A DNA stretch of 9,395 nt from a virus (lineage: Duplodnaviria > Heunggongvirae > Uroviricota > Caudoviricetes): IMG/VR virus record IMGVR_UViG_2690316166_000023; one strand, given 5' to 3'. Below are positions 487 through 9,395 of this stretch, piece after piece (position 1 is the stretch's first letter; each line of letters opens with the position of its first letter). The notes under the pieces are model-generated. The model worked only from the letters and a program-made list of their open reading frames with translations. It was not told where the DNA came from and did not search any database. A program made the position numbers and the translations under genes.

Positions 487-2799
487 NNNNNNNNNNNNNN
501 NNNNNNNNNNNNNNNNNNNNNNNNNNNNNNNNNNNNNNNNNNNNNNNNNNNNNNNNNNNNNNNNNNNNNNNNNNNNNNNNNNNNNNNNNNNNNNNNNNNN
601 NNNNNNNNNNNNNNNNNNNNNNNNNNNNNNNNNNNNNNNNNNNNNNNNNNNNNNNNNNNNNNNNNTCTGAATATCATTATATACTTGCAGCCGTCACCCA
701 TGCTCCANNNNNNNNNNNNNNNNNNNNNNNNNNNNNNNNNNNNNNNNNNNNNNNNNNNNNNNNNNNNNNNNNNNNNNNNNNNNNNNNNNNNNNNNNNNNN
801 NNNNNNNNNNNNNNNNNNNNNNNNNNNNNNNNNNNNNNNNNNNNNNNNNNNNNNNNNNNNNNNNNNNNNNNNNNNNNNNNNNNNNNNNNNNNNNNNNNNN
901 NNNNNNNNNNNNNNNNNNNNNNNNNNNNNNNNNNNNNNNNNNNNNNNNNNNNNNNNNNNNNNNNNNNNNNNNNNNNNNNNNNNNNNNNNNNNNNNNNNNN
1001 NNNNNNNNNNNNNNNNNNNNNNNNNNNNNNNNNNNNNNNNNNNNNNNNNNNNNNNNNNNNNNNNNNNNNNNNNNNNNNNNNNNNNNNNNNNNNNNNNNNN
1101 NNNNNNNNNNNNNNNNNNNNNNNNNNNNNNNNNNNNNNNNNNNNNNNNNNNNNNNNNNNNNNNNNNNNNNNNNNNNNNNNNNNNNNNNNNNNNNNNNNNN
1201 NNNNNNNNNNNNNNNNNNNNNNNNNNNNNNNNNNNNNNNNNNNNNNNNNNNNNNNNNNNNNNNNNNNNNNNNNNNNNNNNNNNNNNNNNNNNNNNNNNNN
1301 NNNNNNNNNNNNNNNNNNNNNNNNNNNNNNNNNNNNNNNNNNNNNNNNNNNNNNNNNNNNNNNNNNNNNNNNNNNNNNNNNNNNNNNNNNNNNNNNNNNN
1401 NNNNNNNNNNNNNNNNNNNNNNNNNNNNNNNNNNNNNNNNNNNNNNNNNNNNNNNNNNNNNNNNNNNNNNNNNNNNNNNNNNNNNNNNNNNNNNNNNNNN
1501 NNNNNNNNNNNNNNNNNNNNNNNNNNNNNNNNNNNNNNNNNNNNNNNNNNNNNNNNNNNNNNNNNNNNNNNNNNNNNNNNNNNNNNNNNNNNNNNNNNNN
1601 NNNNNNNNNNNNNNNNNNNNNNNNNNNNNNNNNNNNNNNNNNNNNNNNNNNNNNNNNNNNNNNNNNNNNNNNNNNNNNNNNNNNNNNNNNNNNNNNNNNN
1701 NNNNNNNNNNNNNNNNNNNNNNNNNNNNNNNNNNNNNNNNNNNNNNNNNNNNNNNNNNNNNNNNNNNNNNNNNNNNNNNNNNNNNNNNNNNNNNNNNNNN
1801 NNNNNNNNNNNNNNNNNNNNNNNNNNNNNNNNNNNNNNATTCAGCAGTTCGGCCTGGANNNNNNNNNNNNNNNNNNNNNNNNNNNNNNNNNNNNNNNNNN
1901 NNNNNNNNNNNNNNNNNNNNNNNNNNNNNNNNNNNNNNNNNNNNNNNNNNNNNNNNNNNNNNNNNNNNNNNNNNNNNNNNNNNNNNNNNNNNNNNNNNNN
2001 NNNNNNNNNNNNNNNNNNNNNNNNNNNNNNNNNNNNNNNNNNNNNNNNNNNNNNNNNNNNNNNNNNNNNNNNNNNNNNNNNNNNNNNNNNNNNNNNNNNN
2101 NNNNNNNNNNNNNNNNNNNNNNNNNNNNNNNNNNNNNNNNNNNNNNNNNNNNNNNNNNNNNNNNNNNNNNNNNNNNNNNNNNNNNNNNNNNNNNNNNNNN
2201 NNNNNNNNNNNNNNNNNNNNNNNNNNNNNNNNNNNNNNNNNNNNNNNNNNNNNNNNNNNNNNNNNNNNNNNNNNNNNNNNNNNNNNNNNNNNNNNNNNNN
2301 NNNNNNNNNNNNNNNNNNNNNNNNNNNNNNNNNNNNNNNNNNNNNNNNNNNNNNNNNCGCTGTCGCTCCGTGAGGGTGGCTCCGGCCATATCACACTCGG
2401 GAAGCCCGAGATAACGCTCCCAGTCTTCCAGCAGCAGGCGCGACGTNNNNNNNNNNNNNNNNNNNNNNNNNNNNNNNNNNNNNNNNNNNNNNNNNNNNNN
2501 NNNNNNNNNNNNNNNNNNNNNNNNNNNNNNNNNNNNNNNNNNNNNNNNNNNNNNNNNNNNNNNNNNNNNNNNNNNNNNNNNNNNNNNNNNNNNNNNNNNN
2601 NNNNNNNNNNNNNNNNNNNNNNNNNNNNNNNNNNNNNNNNNNNNNNNNNNNNNNNNNNNNNNNNNNNNNNNNNNNNNNNNNNNNNNNNNNNNNNNNNNNN
2701 NNNNNNNNNNNNNNNNNNNNNNNNNNNNNNNNNNNNNNNNNNNNNNNNNNNNNNNNNNNNNNNNNNNNNNNNNNNNNNNNNNNNNNNNNNNNNNNNNNN
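487..2799. other. N-masked / undetermined sequence: four N runs (487-665, 708-1838, 1859-2357, 2447-2799) separated by short real islands (666-707, 1839-1858, 2358-2446)
   Basis: Directly visible runs of n. ORF-track entries crossing this block are poly-X and cannot be trusted, since stop codons may be hidden. Context implies tail-fibre coding on the minus strand. Confidence 0.99.
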
Positions 2800-2934
2800 C
2801 CTGCGTCCCGTCAAAGGGAACCCCATTAATATTTCTTGGGGTGGCGAGTCTATTCGCGGCAACGGCGGTGCCGTCCGATGGCAGAGCATTCGCCGCCCTG
2901 TTTACCGTTTCCCGTAAACCGAGGTTTTCAGGAA
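2800..2934 (-). CDS. 5' portion of a tail-fibre variable (C-terminal) segment that begins at the crossover site and has no start codon of its own; continues leftward into masked sequence
   Basis: Minus-strand frame with first codon bases at 2938, 2935, ... reads NRVNPGFPENLGLRETVNRAANALPSDGTAVAANRLATPRNINGVPFDGTQ. The LGL-ETVNRA-N motif is, as I recall it, the conserved junction of P2 H / Mu S / P1 S-type tail fibres. In-frame TAA at 2954-2956 immediately upstream and no ATG/GTG/TTG before the masked block. Confidence 0.5.
2909..2934. other. Site-specific recombination crossover site for the adjacent invertase (gix/pix/hix/cix-type, 12-2-12 imperfect dyad)
   Basis: TTCCCGTAAACC-GA-GGTTTTCAGGAA; the right half is the reverse complement of TTCCTGAAAACC, almost identical to the left half. 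Closely resembles the Mu gix site as I recall it (TTCCTGTAAACCGAGGTTTTGGATAA). Lies 65 bp upstream of the invertase start and inside the tail-fibre motif. Confidence 0.75.
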
Positions 2935-2999
2935 AGCCAGGATTAACTCTGTTTTATTCCTCATGCGACAATTCCGGCTTTTTATAATAAGGAAATCGT

Positions 3000-3572
3000 A
3001 TGCTGATTGGGTATATCAGGGTGTCAACAAATGACCAGAATACGGCGCTACAAAGAAATGCGCTGGAATGTGCAGGATGTGAGCTGTTTTTCGAAGACAG
3101 AATAAGCGGTAAGACAAGGGAGCGTCCCGGACTTAAACGCGCATTAAAGCGACTCCGGCCAGGGGATACCCTGCTGGTCTGGAAACTGGATCGCCTTGGA
3201 CGCAGTATGCAGCACCTTGTCCTTTTAACAGAAGAACTCCGGCAACGCGGCGTTAACTTCCGCAGCATTACGGACAATATTGATACATCCACTCCCATGG
3301 GACGTTTCTTTTTCCATATAATGGGCGCGCTGGCGGAAATGGAGCGGGAACTCATTATTGAACGTACACGCGCGGGTCTTGCTGCTGCCCGTGCTCAGGG
3401 GCGTCATGGCGGCAGACCTCAGAAACTGACAGAGAAAGAGCGGGAGCAAATCGCCCGTTTGCTGGCTAATGGCGAGTCCCGTAAACAAATCGCACTGATA
3501 TTTGATATTGGCCTTTCCACCCTTTATCGTTATTTTCCTGCCTCACCAGCTCCGTCACCAAAAGTACCGTGA
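3000..3572 (+). CDS. Serine recombinase: DNA invertase of the Gin/Pin/Hin/Cin family
   Basis: 190-aa ORF, ATG 3000 with AAGGAAA ribosome-binding site upstream. N-terminus MLIGYIRVSTNDQNT (catalytic Ser in RVST), ...GDTLLVWKLDRLGRS..., ...PMGRFFFHIMGALAEMERELIIERT..., C-terminal HTH (...IALIFDIGLSTLYRYF), all hallmark invertase blocks. Adjacent crossover site. Confidence 0.95.
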   Translation: MLIGYIRVSTNDQNTALQRNALECAGCELFFEDRISGKTRERPGLKRALKRLRPGDTLLVWKLDRLGRSMQHLVLLTEELRQRGVNFRSITDNIDTSTPMGRFFFHIMGALAEMERELIIERTRAGLAAARAQGRHGGRPQKLTEKEREQIARLLANGESRKQIALIFDIGLSTLYRYFPASPAPSPKVP

Positions 3573-3657
3573 CGCTTTTTTGAATTTCCGCAAAACACAT
3601 ATTTTTCAGCGGTCGCTATTCTGACTCTGTTTAATTCAGAAACAGGCAGAAAAGACG

Positions 3658-5712
3658 ATGTCAGACTCCAAGTGGAAAATGCTCTCCGCCATGCCCGGAG
3701 AGTTTTCAGTCAAGGTTGCCGGTGGCACGGTGGCATTTATTGAAAGCCCTTTCCGCCCTTCGGGTAATAAAGGGGGGATCACCTTCGCAGACTGCGTGAT
3801 CCGCTTCAGCACGAAAGAGCCATTATGGGTAATGCCGGTATCCGGTAATCCCAGTGCAGAAATCACCAGTTCAGGCGTGACTGGCATCATTCCAATCACA
3901 TCTGACGTGGCCGGAACGCTCACGCCCTCCGACTGGAATGCACCGGATAACGCCGGGCCTTCCGGTAGCACGAATGGCAGCAGTTCAGAGCCGGAATATT
4001 ACTTTGTTGTCATTCTCGCGGGTCAGTCAAATGGCATGGCCTACGGCGAGGGGCTGCCGTTACCGGATTCGTTTGACCGCCCGGACCCACGCATTAAGCA
4101 ACTGGCACGCCGCAGTACGGTAACGCCCAACGGTACGTCGTGTACATACAACGACATCATTCCGGCAGACCACTGCCTGCATGATGTTCAGGATATGAGC
4201 GGGATAAACCACCCGAAAGCTGATCTGGCAAAAGGCCAGTACGGGACTGTCGGTCAGGGGTTGCATATTGCCAAAAAACTGCTTCCCTATATCCCACAGA
4301 ATGCCGGGATACTTCTGGTGCCCTGTTGTCGTGGCGGGTCAGCATTCACCACTGGAGCCGACGGCTCATTCAGTGAGGCCAGCGGTGCTTCCGCTGATTC
4401 TTCACGCTGGGGGGCCGGTAAACCTCTGTATCAGGACCTGGTAAGCCGCACCAAAGTCGCGCTGGCGAAAAACCCGAAAAACAAACTTCTGGCTGTGGTC
4501 TGGATGCAGGGAGAGGCAGACCTTGCCTCAGGAAGCCAGCAGCATAATAGTTTATTCACGGCCATGGTTCAGCAGTTCAGAACTGACCTGGCTCCGCTTG
4601 CTGCGCAGTGCGTGAGTGGAAATGCCACCACGGTGCCGTGGATTTGCGGTGATACCACGTATTACTGGAAAAACGCTGGCACCGATAAATATGAGGCAGT
4701 ATACGGTGGCTACAAAGGCAAGGAAGCACAGAAAATTTTCTTTGTACCGTTCCTGACGGATGAGAATGGACAGAGCACGCCAACGAATGCTCCGGCGGAA
4801 GACCCGGATATTGTGGCTGTCGGGTATTACGGTGCAGCATCCCGAACCCAGGGCAGTTTTGTTTCGACACAGCGTGACAGCCATTTCAGCTCATGGGCAC
4901 GCAGGGGCGTCATTTCAGACCGTCTGGCCTCAGCTATTATGCTCCATGCAGGGCGCACGGCTGAACTGATGCGCGGGCAGACCGTGACACCACCGGATGA
5001 GAAGCCGTCACCTGATACACCATCAAAACCGTCCACGCCACCCGCAGACACCACGACGATGAGTACGCTATTTGCTTACCGGGCATCTGAGTCTGAAGGA
5101 CGGTTGACACCACAGGGTTGGGCTGCCGGAGGTGGCAAGGCTCAAATCGTGGATGATGCCGGAGCCAGCGGGGGTAAGGCAATGAAACTGACCAAGGAAA
5201 CAGGAAGAGCCCTCTGGTACCTTGAGCATGATGCTGGTAATGGTGCGGACCTGCTGGGTAAAGGTGGTCTTGTCAGTTGTCGTTTTAAACTCGATGGCGC
5301 GCTTACGGCTAATCAGTACGCACTGGCGCTGTACTGGCCGGTTTCTGCCCTGCCGCAAGGGGTTACTCTGGAAGGAAATGCCGGTCATAACCTGCTGGCA
5401 TCGTTCTACGTACAGAGCGATGCCACAGACCTTAACGTGATGTATCACAAAGGAAACACGGCGCAGAACACGAAGCTGGGGTCATTCGGCGCATTTAATA
5501 ACGAATGGCATACGCTGGGCTTCCGTTTTGCCGGTAACAACAGTATTGAGGTGACGCCGGTCATTGATGGTAAGGACGGGACACCATTCATGCTGTCGCA
5601 GTCTCCGGTCGGCACGTTTACGGCAGACAAGTTGCGCGTGACCGATATCACTAAAAATGCGACTTACCCGGTACTGATTGACAGTATCGTGGTGGAAGTG
5701 AATAACGCGTAA
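3658..5712 (+). CDS. SGNH/SASA-family carbohydrate O-acetylesterase, three-part architecture resembling prophage NanS-p sialate O-acetylesterases
   Basis: 684-aa ORF. SGNH blocks visible: block I VILAGQSNGMAYGEG (catalytic Ser), block II CCRGGSAF, block III WMQGEADL, block V RDSHFS (Asp/His). Preceded by a ~110-aa S/T/G-rich N-terminal region and followed by a Pro/Thr-rich linker (TPPDEKPSPDTPSKPSTPPADTTT, about nt 4980-5060) and a ~220-aa C-terminal domain. Weak ribosome-binding site. The enzyme class is well supported; the sialate substrate is inferred. Confidence 0.8.
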   Translation: MSDSKWKMLSAMPGEFSVKVAGGTVAFIESPFRPSGNKGGITFADCVIRFSTKEPLWVMPVSGNPSAEITSSGVTGIIPITSDVAGTLTPSDWNAPDNAGPSGSTNGSSSEPEYYFVVILAGQSNGMAYGEGLPLPDSFDRPDPRIKQLARRSTVTPNGTSCTYNDIIPADHCLHDVQDMSGINHPKADLAKGQYGTVGQGLHIAKKLLPYIPQNAGILLVPCCRGGSAFTTGADGSFSEASGASADSSRWGAGKPLYQDLVSRTKVALAKNPKNKLLAVVWMQGEADLASGSQQHNSLFTAMVQQFRTDLAPLAAQCVSGNATTVPWICGDTTYYWKNAGTDKYEAVYGGYKGKEAQKIFFVPFLTDENGQSTPTNAPAEDPDIVAVGYYGAASRTQGSFVSTQRDSHFSSWARRGVISDRLASAIMLHAGRTAELMRGQTVTPPDEKPSPDTPSKPSTPPADTTTMSTLFAYRASESEGRLTPQGWAAGGGKAQIVDDAGASGGKAMKLTKETGRALWYLEHDAGNGADLLGKGGLVSCRFKLDGALTANQYALALYWPVSALPQGVTLEGNAGHNLLASFYVQSDATDLNVMYHKGNTAQNTKLGSFGAFNNEWHTLGFRFAGNNSIEVTPVIDGKDGTPFMLSQSPVGTFTADKLRVTDITKNATYPVLIDSIVVEVNNA

Positions 5713-5726
5713 GCAGGATAAAAAAA

Positions 5727-5761
5727 TGCCGCCGGTAAGGGAAAACAAGAAACCGGCGGCA
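5727..5761. terminator. GC-rich stem-loop immediately after the esterase stop; a run of T follows it on the minus strand only
   Basis: Stem TGCCGCCGGT (5727-5736) pairs with ACCGGCGGCA (5752-5761), 15-nt loop. Flanked by AAAAAAA (5720-5726) upstream and AAAAAG downstream, so the canonical hairpin-plus-U-tract geometry exists for leftward transcription; rightward it is a hairpin without a U-tract. Confidence 0.4.
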
Positions 5762-5856
5762 AAAAGATCGTTATATCCAAAGCAAAAAATGCAGTGCACC
5801 TTTTTACCTAACAGATATTACCGGTGTCAACACCATGTCAATAATTGGGAGGGATA

Positions 5857-6039
5857 ATGACATTTTTACAGCTTATTTTATTGTATTTCTGCACGGCAGT
5901 ATGTGCGTTATATCTGGTGAGTGGTGGTTATAAGGCCATCAGAAATTATGTTCGCCGCAAAATTGAGGACGCAGCAGCTGAAAAACTCAGTAAAACAGCG
6001 CAGGTAACTCCGCTCCCAAAAGACCCGACCCAGCCCTGA
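5857..6039 (+). CDS. Small hypothetical membrane protein (60 aa): one N-terminal hydrophobic helix and a basic tail
   Basis: ATG 5857 four nt after GGGAGGG (5847-5853); MTFLQLILLYFCTAVCALYLVSGGYKAIRNYVRRKIEDAAAEKL... The ORF-track start at 5845 is a TTG with no ribosome-binding site. No family recognised. Confidence 0.5.
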   Translation: MTFLQLILLYFCTAVCALYLVSGGYKAIRNYVRRKIEDAAAEKLSKTAQVTPLPKDPTQP

Positions 6040-6074
6040 TTGCAGGGCTTTATTCCCGCATAAGGAGGATATAC

Positions 6075-6329
6075 ATGCCAGAAATTAAAGGCACCGTCAC
6101 TGAAGACCTGGTAAAACAGGCACTGTATTCCGGTGAAGTAAATAAGTTGCTGAAAGCGCAGGTCCGCAAGGATTTTGAGGCACAAATCGACACTTACGTT
6201 GATGAAGTGCTGGCAAAACTTATTGGGCCAGCAGTTGCGGCCAGTGATGCTGATAATGAGCCGAAAACCGACGCGCAGCCAGAGCAACCAGACCCGGCTC
6301 AGCCCGGAACTGACAGTACCATGATGTAA
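6075..6329 (+). CDS. Small hypothetical acidic protein (84 aa): helical N-terminus and an Asp/Glu/Pro/Gln-rich, probably disordered, C-terminus
   Basis: ATG 6075 with near-consensus ribosome-binding site AAGGAGG (6062-6068, 6-nt spacer); 35 nt downstream of the previous ORF on the same strand, so probably one operon. No family recognised. Confidence 0.6.
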   Translation: MPEIKGTVTEDLVKQALYSGEVNKLLKAQVRKDFEAQIDTYVDEVLAKLIGPAVAASDADNEPKTDAQPEQPDPAQPGTDSTMM

Positions 6330-6386
6330 CAATACAAACCGGTGGTGTCCTCTGCCGGTTTGACACTAATGAAAACATCTTTGCCG

Positions 6387-6427
6387 CTATCCAGCCATAT
6401 GTAATCGCTGGATAGTATTTCGTATTC
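6387..6427 (+). terminator. Candidate intrinsic terminator for the two-gene small operon
   Basis: Inverted repeat CTATCCAGC (6387-6395) / GCTGGATAG (6407-6415), 11-nt loop, followed by T-rich TATTTCGTATTC. A second imperfect hairpin sits at about 6335-6360. Confidence 0.35.
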
Positions 6428-6496
6428 AGAAATATAGCTGCTTATGGAGCAGTCAATCCTGCTTCCCCATCCGGGCAGGCAAATGAACCGGTATCA

Positions 6497-6790
6497 TTAG
6501 TCCGATTCACGCTTTTGTAGAATCGTTCCCAGAATGCTATACAGCTCATTAGCCTGTTGCTCCATCATTGAGACGGAGGCTATACGGTGCAAAGTGATTT
6601 CAGGAGGTGGCACACCTCCATCTTCTTGCTGTGGAGGAAAAACATAAGATTTAATAAAAAAGTTGAAGCATATGAACTCTCCCGCACTCGAACTGTATTT
6701 GCAGGCATCTGAATAATCGGAAAAATAATCATTATAGATTTCCGCATTTTCAATCATTTTTCGATTTCTCGTCGTTACATGATTGTCCAT
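6497..6790 (-). CDS. Hypothetical protein (97 aa), AT-rich, transcribed divergently from com-mom
   Basis: Minus-strand ATG at 6790-6788 with AAGAGG 5 nt upstream (complement of about 6796-6801). MDNHVTTRNRKMIENAEIYNDYFSDYSDACKYSS...; no family recognised. Composition appears more AT-rich than the flanking genes. Confidence 0.55.
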   Translation of the reverse strand: MDNHVTTRNRKMIENAEIYNDYFSDYSDACKYSSSAGEFICFNFFIKSYVFPPQQEDGGVPPPEITLHRIASVSMMEQQANELYSILGTILQKRESD

Positions 6791-6978
6791 AGCAGCCTCT
6801 TACGCTGGCAATTAACCAATTGACTTCTATAAATTAGTTGATTTGTTTGCTTTGCGGTATTCAAATGTACAATCATTCAGCACTTATGCGTTACAGCACC
6901 GTTTAAAATTAGTGATCAAACTCATAAATTTTCGCTAATGACATTTCGTGTTATTTGTTGTATCAATTAAATAAATCA

Positions 6979-7003
6979 AATCGATCGTTTTTGTCGATCG
7001 ATT
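6979..7003. promoter_or_regulatory. Palindromic operator-like element with two Dam (GATC) sites upstream of com-mom
   Basis: AATCGATCG-tttttgt-CGATCGATT: 9-bp arms in perfect inverted repeat, GATC at 6984-6987 and 6996-6999, a third GATC at 6914-6917. About 45-65 bp upstream of the com start. Mu mom is known to be controlled through clustered GATC sites whose methylation blocks OxyR binding. Confidence 0.45.
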
Positions 7004-7046
7004 GAGTGATAAAGATATCAACAACAAAGCAGGAGGTTATGCGGCC

Positions 7047-7247
7047 ATGTATCGAAACATACGGTGCCGACATTGTAACAAGCTACTGGCACGAGCCAGC
7101 TTCAGTTATCTGGAAGTTAAATGTCCGCGCTGTAAAACCCTCAATCAAATCACATCTCAGAGCGCCACAGAGCACCCCACATACACAAGGAAATCCTGTC
7201 GTGGGGAACAGAAAGCAAGTTACATCCCGTATCATCAGCACGCCTGA
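7047..7247 (+). CDS. com: Com-like zinc-finger translational activator
   Basis: 66-aa ORF, ATG 7047 ten nt after AGGAGG (7031-7036). [30 protein letters not shown]... has the Cys-X2-Cys...Cys-X2-Cys pattern and aligns block-wise with Mu Com as I recall it (MKSIRCKNCNKLL...IEIRCPRCK...). Its 3' end overlaps the following mom-like frame. The ORF-track start at 7002 is a TTG extension. Confidence 0.8.
7175..7206 (+). promoter_or_regulatory. RNA hairpin that would sequester the putative mom GTG start codon and its ribosome-binding site (candidate Com-responsive translational switch)
   Basis: CCCCAC (7175-7180) is the exact complement of GTGGGG (7201-7206); the 20-nt loop holds AAGGAAA; the GTG at 7201-7203 is in the mom frame and inside the 3' arm. 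It lies inside the 3' end of com, the arrangement known for Mu. Confidence 0.4.
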
Positions 7248-7938
7248 ACTTATTCACTATAACGACAATATCGTCGGTTATGGCTCCCGTGAGTTACGGG
7301 TTGAGACAATAAGTTGCTGGCTGGCCCGGCTGGTCGTCGTCAATAAACATTACAGCCATCGTTTCGTAAATAATTCCTACCTTCATCTGGGCATATTTTC
7401 AGAACGGGAGCTGGTTGGCGTAATGCAATGGGGTTATGCCCTTAATCCAAACAATGGTGCACGCGTCGTAACTGGCACGCAGAACCGCGAATATATGGAG
7501 CTTAACCGGTTATGGCTGCATGACTGTATGCCGAGAAACTCCGAATCAAGGGCAATCAGTTACGCGCTCAAACTAATCAGACAACTTTATCCGCAGGTGC
7601 AGTGGGTTCAGTCGTTTGCAGATGAGCGTTGTGGCTGTCTTGGTGTCGTGTACCAGGCAAGCAATTTTGATTATGTAGGCAGTCATGAAACAACATTCTA
7701 TGAACTTGATGGCGAGTGGTATCACGAGATTTGCAAGAATGCAATCAAACGAGGAGGACAGCGAGGTGAACATCTGCGGGCTAATATCGACAGAGCCAGT
7801 GTTCATAAATTCCGTCAGTTTCGTTACATCCGGTTTCTGGACAAGAGAGCCAGAAAACGCCTTAACACAAAGCTATTCAAAGTCCAGCCTTACCCAAAAC
7901 CACAAACAGTTAAAACTGGTTTGAAAGAGAGTGAATGA
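7201..7938 (+). CDS. mom: Mom-like DNA modification protein (adenine-modifying, acyltransferase-like); start uncertain: GTG 7201 proposed, maximal ORF begins at 7006
   Basis: Long ORF ending at 7938 that overlaps com in another frame, which is the signature com-mom arrangement. GTG 7201 has AAGGA 8 nt upstream and sits in the hairpin, giving 245 aa (Mu Mom is about 230 aa). Assignment rests on context; I cannot recall Mom sequence well enough to align it. Confidence 0.6.
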
Positions 7939-7995
7939 ACGCTTAAAAACTCATTCTAAAACTCAAAAGAAAAGCGCCGATTTAGTATCAAATAA

Positions 7996-8862
<867 letters not shown>

Positions 8863-8975: not shown

Positions 8976-9395
8976 TCAAAGAAACCATTCCGGCTTAACG
9001 CCAAATCGGGCTGAAAGTGCCTTAATGTGGGATATCGTCAGGGATCGTTGTCCAGACAAAATCTGACTGACCAGGGATTTAGAGCCGATTTCGTTCTTCA
9101 AATCCGCATAGGTCAGATTATGTTGATCAATCAGCGTGCGAAGTAACGCCACGCCAACAGGCATTGCCGCAACGGCTTTGTCGAACTCTGCAAACTCTTG
9201 GTTGTTGTTTTCATATTCTGCAATGCGGCTCGCCAGAAAGTCGATAAGTGGATTGGTGTCATCTTCTTCAATCAAATATTCGACCAGTTCCAGTGCTTCA
9301 CGATAATCATCTTCTGAGTCACTACCTCCCAGAAAGGGGACTGCATTGACCAGTTCTCTTGTTGCTTTAACAGCGCGTGCAGCATTAGCAGTCAT
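8976..9395 (-). CDS. HigA-family antitoxin / XRE-type HTH regulator
   Basis: 139-aa minus-strand ORF whose ATG is the last three bases of the window. MTANAARAVKATRELVNAVPFLGG...NPLIDFLASRIAEYE...EFAEFDKAVAAMPVGVALLRTLIDQHNLTYADL...IGSKSLVSQILSGQRSLTISHIKALSARFGVKPEWF matches E. coli HigA block for block as I recall it. The partner toxin gene would lie upstream, outside the window. Confidence 0.8.
   Translation of the reverse strand: MTANAARAVKATRELVNAVPFLGGSDSEDDYREALELVEYLIEEDDTNPLIDFLASRIAEYENNNQEFAEFDKAVAAMPVGVALLRTLIDQHNLTYADLKNEIGSKSLVSQILSGQRSLTISHIKALSARFGVKPEWFL

Follow-up and report, generated by a model that had tools for sequence, protein, structure and literature searches.

NanS-p sialate O-acetylesterases have been described in the literature in lambdoid prophages only, and a gene for a protein of this kind beside a DNA invertase and a mom gene of Mu type raises the questions of what the enzyme is, how it differs from its lambdoid relatives, and whether it is a stable part of the prophage that carries it. 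The gene is located in a stretch of 9,395 nucleotides from a Caudoviricetes virus (IMG/VR record IMGVR_UViG_2690316166_000023), which at its full length is referred to here as the window, and it specifies a protein of 684 amino acids (aa; Table 1). The analysis supports its assignment as a sialate O-acetylesterase of NanS-p type that is built from three modules and encoded by a late gene fixed among the Sp18-like Mu prophages of Escherichia coli and Shigella, a reading to which a probability of about 0.8 is given. The feature that distinguishes the protein is the replacement of the DUF1737 domain by an unrelated N-terminal domain, which was only half-noticed in an earlier annotation made from the DNA letters (the original prediction). 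Homology, motif integrity, module boundaries and their exchange, the Mu-like context, purifying selection and the sharing of a promoter-like motif were computed directly, and it is from these that we infer enzymatic specificity, late C-dependent expression and release through lysis.

Catalytic and sugar-binding modules of the esterase

In a search of 5.8 billion protein clusters, the exact window protein was found to be the head of a 599-member cluster, and its frame of 684 codons is encountered in identical or near-identical form in hundreds of records. Residues 71-684 matched PHROG 143 (E 2e-296), and the Pfam profiles SASA (PF03629; E 1.5e-13, 51.3 bits versus a cut-off of 24.8) and DUF6645 (PF20350; E 7e-68) were recognised in residues 117-312 and 533-650, respectively. 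At a cut-off of E <= 1, the sequences of the PDB yielded matches to NanS, NanS-p and, weakly, a plant esterase, and otherwise only chance matches to nanobodies. Residues 110-428 align to E. coli NanS (YjhS, PDB 3PT5) with an E-value of 1.8e-117 and ~65% identity over 319 residues. The NanS-type SGNH blocks of 3PT5 read GQSNA, RGGSAF, MQGEFD and R-x-SHFS (PMC10792757), and all four are present in the window protein, as GQSNG (122-126), RGGSAF (225-230), MQGEAD (283-288) and RDSHFS (406-411). Moreover, neither Ser124 nor His409 varies among the 15 alleles that were aligned. The original prediction of a NanS-p-like SGNH/SASA esterase with a complete set of catalytic blocks is thereby upheld, on the basis of the SASA profile score, the 3PT5 match and the four blocks.

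The fourth block reads RDSH in the window protein, RSSH in NanS, and RASH in the second Mu-type allele that is introduced below as type 2; in Stx2a-phage alleles it is either RSSH or RASH (PMC10462455). Asp407 is not required, since the type 2 allele has RASH and NanS has RSSH, and in 3PT5 the place of the catalytic acid is taken by a main-chain (carbonyl) oxygen (PMC10792757). A full-length AlphaFold2 model, built on a shallow alignment of 18 close homologues, had a mean predicted local distance difference test score (pLDDT) of 35. The fold is very likely the same as that of 3PT5, given the residue-by-residue alignment at ~65% identity.

The prophage-encoded NanS-p enzymes of strains EDL933 and O104:H4 are reported to be active on Neu5,9Ac2 and on mucin (PMC8065619). 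The identity of 87-91% with lambdoid alleles gives high confidence that the window protein, too, would be an active NanS-p-type sialate O-acetylesterase. In the mechanism proposed here, Ser124 would attack the acetyl ester with His409 acting as the base, as in E. coli NanS, and the catalytic module would take O-acetyl groups off Neu5,9Ac2 and related mucin sialic acids. The original prediction had considered the deacetylation of O-antigen or capsule to be equally likely, which found no support: because the catalytic and binding modules are both 87-91% identical to those of lambdoid NanS-p, the same sialate is by far the most likely substrate.

The catalytic domain is followed by a Pro/Thr/Ser-rich linker, the length of which differs among alleles, and by a lectin-like domain. 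Residues 469-683 align to the C-terminal domain of NanS-p in PDB 6YP6 (E 1.1e-97, ~70% identical). The aromatic residues that have been proposed to bind sugars in vb_24B_21 (Y510, Y515, Y540 and F611; PMC10462455) are conserved in the window protein as Y554, Y559, Y584 and F654, and the lectin-like module is expected to direct the enzyme to glycans. The C-terminal domain is indeed beta-rich and preceded by a Pro/Thr linker, as had been noticed, but it is not the extra domain for which it was taken, as it corresponds to the canonical jelly-roll module of NanS-p (6YP6). In terms of family membership, the protein thus has the catalytic and C-terminal domains that characterise NanS-p, and lacks both the DUF1737 N-terminus and the location in a lambdoid late region.

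Exchange of the N-terminal module

The DUF1737 profile, which had been put forward along with SASA in the original prediction, found no match in the window protein (PF08410, E <= 0.01). Precomputed Pfam annotation within the 5.8 billion protein clusters revealed two architectural classes, i.e., proteins of 678-691 aa with SASA and DUF6645 and without PF08410, and proteins of 647-650 aa that also contain PF08410. Alleles of both classes are 87-91% identical over residues ~100-684, and their N-termini are unalignable. In the DNA, similarity to alleles of the DUF1737 class sets in within window positions 3973-4019 (residues ~106-121), spans the stop codon, reaches into the DUF1378 gene, and ends within positions 5726-5992. 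The recombination boundary with lambdoid alleles is the end of the linker formed by residues 83-110, and the alignments indicate a clean swap of the N-terminal module, with the catalytic domain, the binding domain and DUF1378 forming a cassette that both classes have in common.

An AlphaFold2 model of the N-terminal domain was obtained from a five-sequence alignment that included homologues with 58% and 30% identity. Five beta strands were predicted within residues ~7-79, with pLDDT values of 79-89 over residues ~11-70, and residues 83-116 were predicted to be disordered (pLDDT < 50). The N-terminus had been read as S/T/G-rich, which does not hold for residues 1-82, as these are predicted to form a folded beta domain, and the low-complexity sequence is confined to the linker of residues 83-110.

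The N-terminal domain matches no Pfam family, and no similarity to DUF1737, which consists of an alpha helix plus three strands, was detected by Pfam or fold search. Fold searches yielded no significant phage tail protein and no known decoration or tail-adaptor protein; weak matches were obtained to barrels of the cupin and jelly-roll type, among them carbohydrate-binding domains of the PA14 family. When 1.84 billion representative proteins were searched exhaustively with HMMER, three matches to the domain were retrieved, all of which are fragments of such esterases, a word-indexed search with the domain alone likewise returned only fragments, and a pattern scan for the domain in the species genomes of GTDB found nothing. 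The domain differs from that of the allele in locus L023 by 21 synonymous and 3 non-synonymous substitutions, and among type 1 alleles the ratio of non-synonymous to synonymous change (dN/dS) amounts to 0.03-0.13; the domain is under purifying selection.

Three levels of divergence of the N-terminal domain could be distinguished, represented by type 1 (the window), type 2 (59% identical) and type 3 (30% identical, P0126). All three types are fused to the same esterase, and each of them is preceded by a module of Mu-like baseplate, fibre and invertase genes. The DNA upstream of the domain is Mu-like tail-fibre or invertase sequence in 34 of 34 IMG/VR loci, and in the annotated E. coli prophages that were examined it is likewise positioned 3' of Mu-like tail-fibre and invertase genes. 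Among the homologues found, the domain occurs only in esterases of Mu-like prophages.

Prophage context, distribution and putative late expression

The distribution of the gene was determined in 5426 complete E. coli genomes. DNA of the type 1 N-terminal domain (at least 90% identity) is present in 28 of these genomes, DNA of the type 2 domain was found in 205, and 233 contain the com-mom right end that marks the prophage lineage; any nanS-p-like DNA was encountered in 1291 genomes. Since the 28 and 205 genomes add up to the 233 that contain the right end, the esterase is fixed in Sp18-like Mu prophages and is not an occasional passenger. The location that was thought to be unusual is therefore so with respect to the literature, where it is lambdoid only, and not in genomes, where it is a fixed property of the Sp18-like Mu lineage. 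Mu phage itself has nothing between gin and Pmom-com-mom.

Several E. coli genomes contain a 100% identical copy of a segment of 5.1 kb (window positions 2900-8027), the chromosomal site of which differs between them. A single genome can have up to 3-4 copies of the right end, and the annotated copies are located at the right end of complete Mu-like prophages (RefSeq annotation; loci L040 and L001). The carrier prophages encode a repressor-region gene, MuA transposase, MuB ATPase, Gam, a Mor/C-family activator and lysis genes, as well as portal, gpT major head protein, sheath, tube, baseplate, fibres and invertase. The genes that are split by the prophages include ascB in the window, a JAB-domain gene in JKHS016 and sorM in Sakai. 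The Mu-type invertase/mom setting that had been proposed is confirmed, because annotated copies form the end of complete Mu-like prophages that split different target genes, and MuA/MuB, Mor/C, gpT, a Mu-type tail, invertase and com/mom are all annotated.

Comparison of the upstream regions of phage genes revealed a late-promoter-like motif. The element TGAATTTCCGCAAA is located 63 nucleotides (nt) upstream of the esterase ATG, and the sequence TGANNTNNCGCAAA followed by 22-23 nt and then TAnnnT is also found in front of the lysozyme gene in the type 1 prophage. When both strands of an intact type 2 prophage of 39.5 kb were scanned, the motif was found exactly three times, always in the coding orientation and in front of lys, the I protease gene and the esterase gene, against an expectation of 0.16 in a first-order Markov simulation. 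Besides the site in the window, the motif was located at L040 19098 and at L042 10792, 18719 and 34715. The I protease of the type 2 prophage was recognised by Pfam as Mu-like_Pro (E 2e-89). These positions match those of Plys, PI and Pmom in Mu, in which Pmom directly follows gin, and at the equivalent place the Mu late promoters have a different element, CCATAACCCC. A generic scan for sigma-70 promoters and terminators gave no more sites than were obtained in shuffled sequence. The motif probably represents the late promoters of the Sp18-like lineage that respond to a C-type activator, and from the sharing of the motif the esterase gene is probably a late gene that is driven by the phage C-type activator. 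In the proposed scheme, transcription of the esterase gene would start at a late promoter of C type and would accompany that of the lysis and head genes. The 684-aa protein contains no hydrophobic N-terminal segment and therefore has no signal peptide, because of which it would remain in the cytoplasm, build up there late in induction, and meet extracellular mucin sialic acids through phage lysis alone.

A one-base-shorter copy of the motif, TGAATACCGCAAA, was noticed on the minus strand at window positions 6846-6859, 5' of the open reading frame (ORF) of 97 aa that occupies positions 6497-6790 on the same strand (Table 1).

Table 1. Features of the window, their positions (nt) and the evidence for them.
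Feature	Position	Strand	Description
Tail-fibre assembly gene	upstream of invertase 3000-3572	-	readable part of the window
Gin/Pin-type serine DNA invertase	3000..3572	+	Pfam Resolvase (E 1.6e-51) plus HTH_7; PHROG 125 DNA invertase
Late-promoter-like element	3581..3622	+	TGAATTTCCGCAAA, 22-nt spacer, then TATTCT
Esterase gene, complete	3658..5712	+	single uninterrupted ATG-to-stop ORF, 684 aa plus stop
N-terminal domain, residues 1-82	3658..3903	+	predicted small all-beta; in place of DUF1737; specific to Mu-like prophages
Linker, residues 83-110	3904..3987	+	Ser/Gly/Asn/Pro-rich; predicted disordered
SASA/SGNH catalytic domain, residues 111-428	3988..4941	+	3PT5 match, four blocks
Nucleophile Ser124	4027-4029	+	GQSNG block
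Base His409	4882-4884	+	RDSHFS block
Interdomain linker, residues 429-468	4942..5061	+	Pro/Thr/Ser-rich; sequence reading
Lectin-like jelly-roll carbohydrate-binding domain (DUF6645), residues 469-684	5062..5709	+	6YP6 and Pfam
DUF1378 small membrane protein	5857..6039	+	Pfam DUF1378 (E 1.2e-31); RefSeq annotation in L001
DUF826 protein	6075..6329	+	Pfam DUF826 (E 6.4e-16)
97-aa ORF	6497-6790	-	no Pfam, PHROG, NCBIfam or PADLOC match
com	7047-7247	+	PHROG Com; RefSeq annotation
mom	7201-7938	+	Pfam Mom (E 1.6e-77); PHROG; RefSeq annotation
Prophage right end (...GGTATCA)	8020..8027		abuts truncated host ascB
ascB, C-terminal 270 codons only	8050-8862		beyond the prophage end
higA-like HTH antitoxin gene	8976-9395	-	

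Besides the esterase, several features of the window and of related loci deserve mention. The invertase gene has the same position as gin in phage Mu. Runs of masked N occupy window positions 487-665 and ~709-2800, where the tail-fibre and invertible-segment genes should be, and ORFs listed within these runs are artefacts of the masking. Identity to the prophage copies in other genomes ends at position 8027 and the match to host ascB, which encodes a 6-phospho-beta-glucosidase, begins at 8045, so that the prophage end at ~8025-8027 interrupts this gene; none of the complete E. coli genomes in the collection has the Mu-like prophage at the ascB site. A defence-system reading was dropped because neither NCBIfam nor PADLOC gave anything informative for the esterase or for the small proteins encoded beside it.

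The slot between DUF826 and com (window 6330-7046; L006 10700-11450; L002 8686-8880; L043 8627-9091) varies among near-identical prophages: it contains the 97-aa ORF in the window, the 154-aa ECs_4996 in Sakai and different small ORFs in further prophages, and it may be a slot for cargo (moron) genes. In some type 2 prophages (L002 9221-10472; H188, H189) the place of mom after com is taken by a gene for a DNA cytosine methyltransferase, which amounts to an exchange of the DNA-modification gene that Com controls. At window 6979-7003, ~45-65 nt 5' of com, there is a perfect 9-bp inverted repeat, AATCGATCG...CGATCGATT, which contains two GATC sites and recalls the Dam/OxyR-controlled GATC cluster of Mu Pmom; between this repeat and com no late-promoter element could be recognised.

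Some carriers are degraded or rearranged (L001 6967-10006; L040 23657-33168), in that their portal, MuF, sheath and tape-measure genes are truncated and a head-tail block is inverted, and even in L001 and L040 the end composed of esterase, DUF1378, DUF826, com and mom is 100% identical. In a hybrid locus (L004 754-9083), a Mu-like invertase and an esterase with the N-terminal domain are joined, within the 3' part of the esterase gene, to the lambdoid genes DUF1378, DUF826, holin, lysozyme, Rz and Nu1 terminase. The shared nanS-p cassette evidently acts as a recombination bridge between unrelated prophages, and the near-identical catalytic modules can be regarded as the elements that link these prophage types.

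Role of the N-terminal domain and alternative readings

Several observations weigh against the assignment as a fixed late esterase gene. The RDSH of the fourth block departs from the RSSH and RASH of NanS and the Stx2a alleles. The motif of the Sp18-like lineage is unlike the CCATAACCCC element of Mu itself, no site equivalent to PP was found, and the I-protease site is the sole independent support for the motif, because this was partly derived from the regions upstream of the esterase and lys genes. Moreover, several host prophage copies are degraded or rearranged, and the gene may therefore not be expressed in a working lytic cycle in many strains. The same degradation of many carriers, together with the occurrence of Mu-like/lambdoid hybrid joints inside the esterase gene (L004), could be taken to mean that the gene is a decaying remnant, in which a lambdoid nanS-p fragment was accidentally fused to unrelated Mu-like sequence and is no longer functional. 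This is highly improbable, in view of the intact 684-codon frame in hundreds of records, the intactness of all catalytic motifs, the dN/dS of the N-terminal domain, and the recurrence of the same architecture in homologues in which this domain is ~59% and 30% identical; the pseudogene or accidental-fusion reading was set aside on the basis of conservation and dN/dS.

With the gene regarded as a maintained late esterase gene of Sp18-like Mu prophages, the role of its N-terminal domain can be considered. According to a 2026 preprint, the NanS-p homologue gp84 of phage phi24B decorates the capsid via a DUF1737 hexamer, and is later self-processed at both linkers (bioRxiv 10.64898/2026.04.10.717836). 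By analogy, the N-terminal domain may dock the esterase on the Mu-like virion, an idea that is put forward because a lineage-restricted, tethered domain replaces exactly the DUF1737 module that docks gp84, and that is offered tentatively. It would then be an unrecognised docking module that shows active esterase and lectin on the Sp18-like capsid or tail, which on present evidence is rather doubtful, as the domain resembles neither DUF1737 nor known decoration or tail-adaptor proteins. DUF1737-type alleles are also present in P2-like phages, so that the type of N-terminal module is not simply mapped onto the type of capsid. If docking were true, the anchor domain would be functionally equivalent to the DUF1737 of the podovirus phi24B, yet unrelated to it, differently built phages would independently have given the same mucin-modifying cassette their own anchors, and the enzyme would have a role at the level of the virion (mucus adherence or penetration), beyond a benefit for the lysogen alone.

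The main rival on the role of the domain is a soluble 'moron' enzyme, a serious contender at somewhat less than even odds, in which the N-terminal domain would be an additional carbohydrate-binding or solubility module that is unlinked to the virion, and which would be released at lysis or leaked as a public good for surviving lysogens that use O-acetylated sialic acids. Small beta-sandwich or jelly-roll domains are typical of carbohydrate-binding modules, and the weak fold matches to cupin and jelly-roll barrels, PA14 domains among them, are in line with this. The reported function of lambdoid NanS-p is a growth benefit on Neu5,9Ac2 (PMC8065619), and the gene is intact although many of the prophage copies that carry it are defective. 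Nevertheless, the domain occupies the exact place of the capsid-binding DUF1737, on a long disordered tether, and it was found in Mu-like prophages only, whereas free recombination with lambdoid alleles is seen for the catalytic and binding modules; a sugar-binding module of general use should have travelled along with these two, and the restriction of the domain therefore counts against a soluble enzyme. It was also considered that the protein might be a tail-associated, receptor-modifying enzyme, with the domain attached to baseplate or fibres and the esterase deacetylating O-antigen or capsule, for example O-acetylated polysialic acid, for adsorption. The gene is located directly 3' of the tail-fibre/invertase module and has a late-promoter-like element, an N-terminal domain plus flexible linker is a design known from receptor-binding enzymes, and the literature has considered that NanS-p might help phages to reach their receptor (PMC8065619). 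This reading is nonetheless improbable: near-identical modules (87-91%) occur in lambdoid alleles of unrelated virions with other host ranges, the invertase gene separates the esterase from the tail operon and Mu has only com/mom there, no similarity to a tailspike or adaptor protein was detected by sequence or fold, and phi24B, the sole studied case, has its anchor at the capsid and not at the tail.

Irrespective of the role of its N-terminal domain, the Mu-like class of the esterase is carried by ~4% of complete E. coli genomes, including that of O157:H7 Sakai, and is annotated as hypothetical or DUF6645. These alleles are hidden by such annotation, and counts of nanS-p per strain that are restricted to lambdoid prophages would therefore miss them. 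The clean replacement of a capsid-docking module by an orphan domain that is restricted to Mu-like prophages provides a testable prediction on the modular display of host-glycan-modifying enzymes on virions. Neither the C-terminal domain nor the location is as remarkable as the original prediction held, and the N-terminal swap and the probable late control stand out. The sequence itself has long been public; no paper on NanS-p in Mu-like prophages or on this N-terminal domain was found in the literature searched, and an earlier mention is possible.

Comparison with known systems

The closest known relatives are the NanS-p proteins of lambdoid prophages with and without stx (such as L0105/z1466 of 933W and vb_24B_21/gp84 of phi24B), which have the same SASA and lectin-like C-terminal domains. 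Identity to the nearest alleles of E. coli amounts to 87-91% over residues ~100-684, and that to the crystallised C-terminal domain of phi24B is ~70%. Pro/Thr-rich linkers, downstream DUF1378 and DUF826 genes, the lack of a signal peptide and likely late expression are also held in common; in lambdoid phages, nanS-p is separated from the holin gene S by genes for DUF826 and DUF1378 (PMC10462455). The lambdoid proteins contain DUF1737, whereas the Mu-type allele has an unrelated beta domain of ~80 residues and a longer linker, and the lambdoid gene is positioned between stx/Q and holin, whereas the Mu-type gene lies between gin and com/mom in the prophage of a transposable myovirus.

With ECs_4993 of prophage Sp18 in E. 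coli O157:H7 Sakai, which represents the type 2 allele (205 versus 28 genomes), the window protein shares the same three modules at an overall identity of 66%, with an N-terminal domain that is 59% identical and RASH in the fourth block. Its gene occupies the same slot, after the invertase and before DUF1378, DUF826, com and mom. ECs_4993 has been annotated as a hypothetical protein, and other members carry the RefSeq names 'DUF6645 domain-containing protein' or 'sialate O-acetylesterase'.

Chromosomal NanS (YjhS, 3PT5) has the catalytic fold and the four variant SGNH blocks in common with the window protein at ~65% identity, and the 337-residue chain of 3PT5, which lacks the N- and C-terminal modules, aligns to residues 110-428 only. 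NanS belongs to the chromosomal sialic-acid regulon. Homologous esterases are also encoded by contractile-tailed, temperate phages outside the lambdoid group, such as the P2-like (Peduoviridae) phage vB_EcoM-569R5 and a P88-like phage. In P2-like loci (L038 2770-4020; L039 2764-4227), the NanS-p homologue directly follows the holin, endolysin and spanin genes. These P2-like alleles are of the DUF1737 type, and even canonical NanS-p is therefore not confined to lambdoid phages; they retain a DUF1737-like N-terminus and a position after the lysis genes, whereas the Mu-type gene has its place at the end of a transposon.

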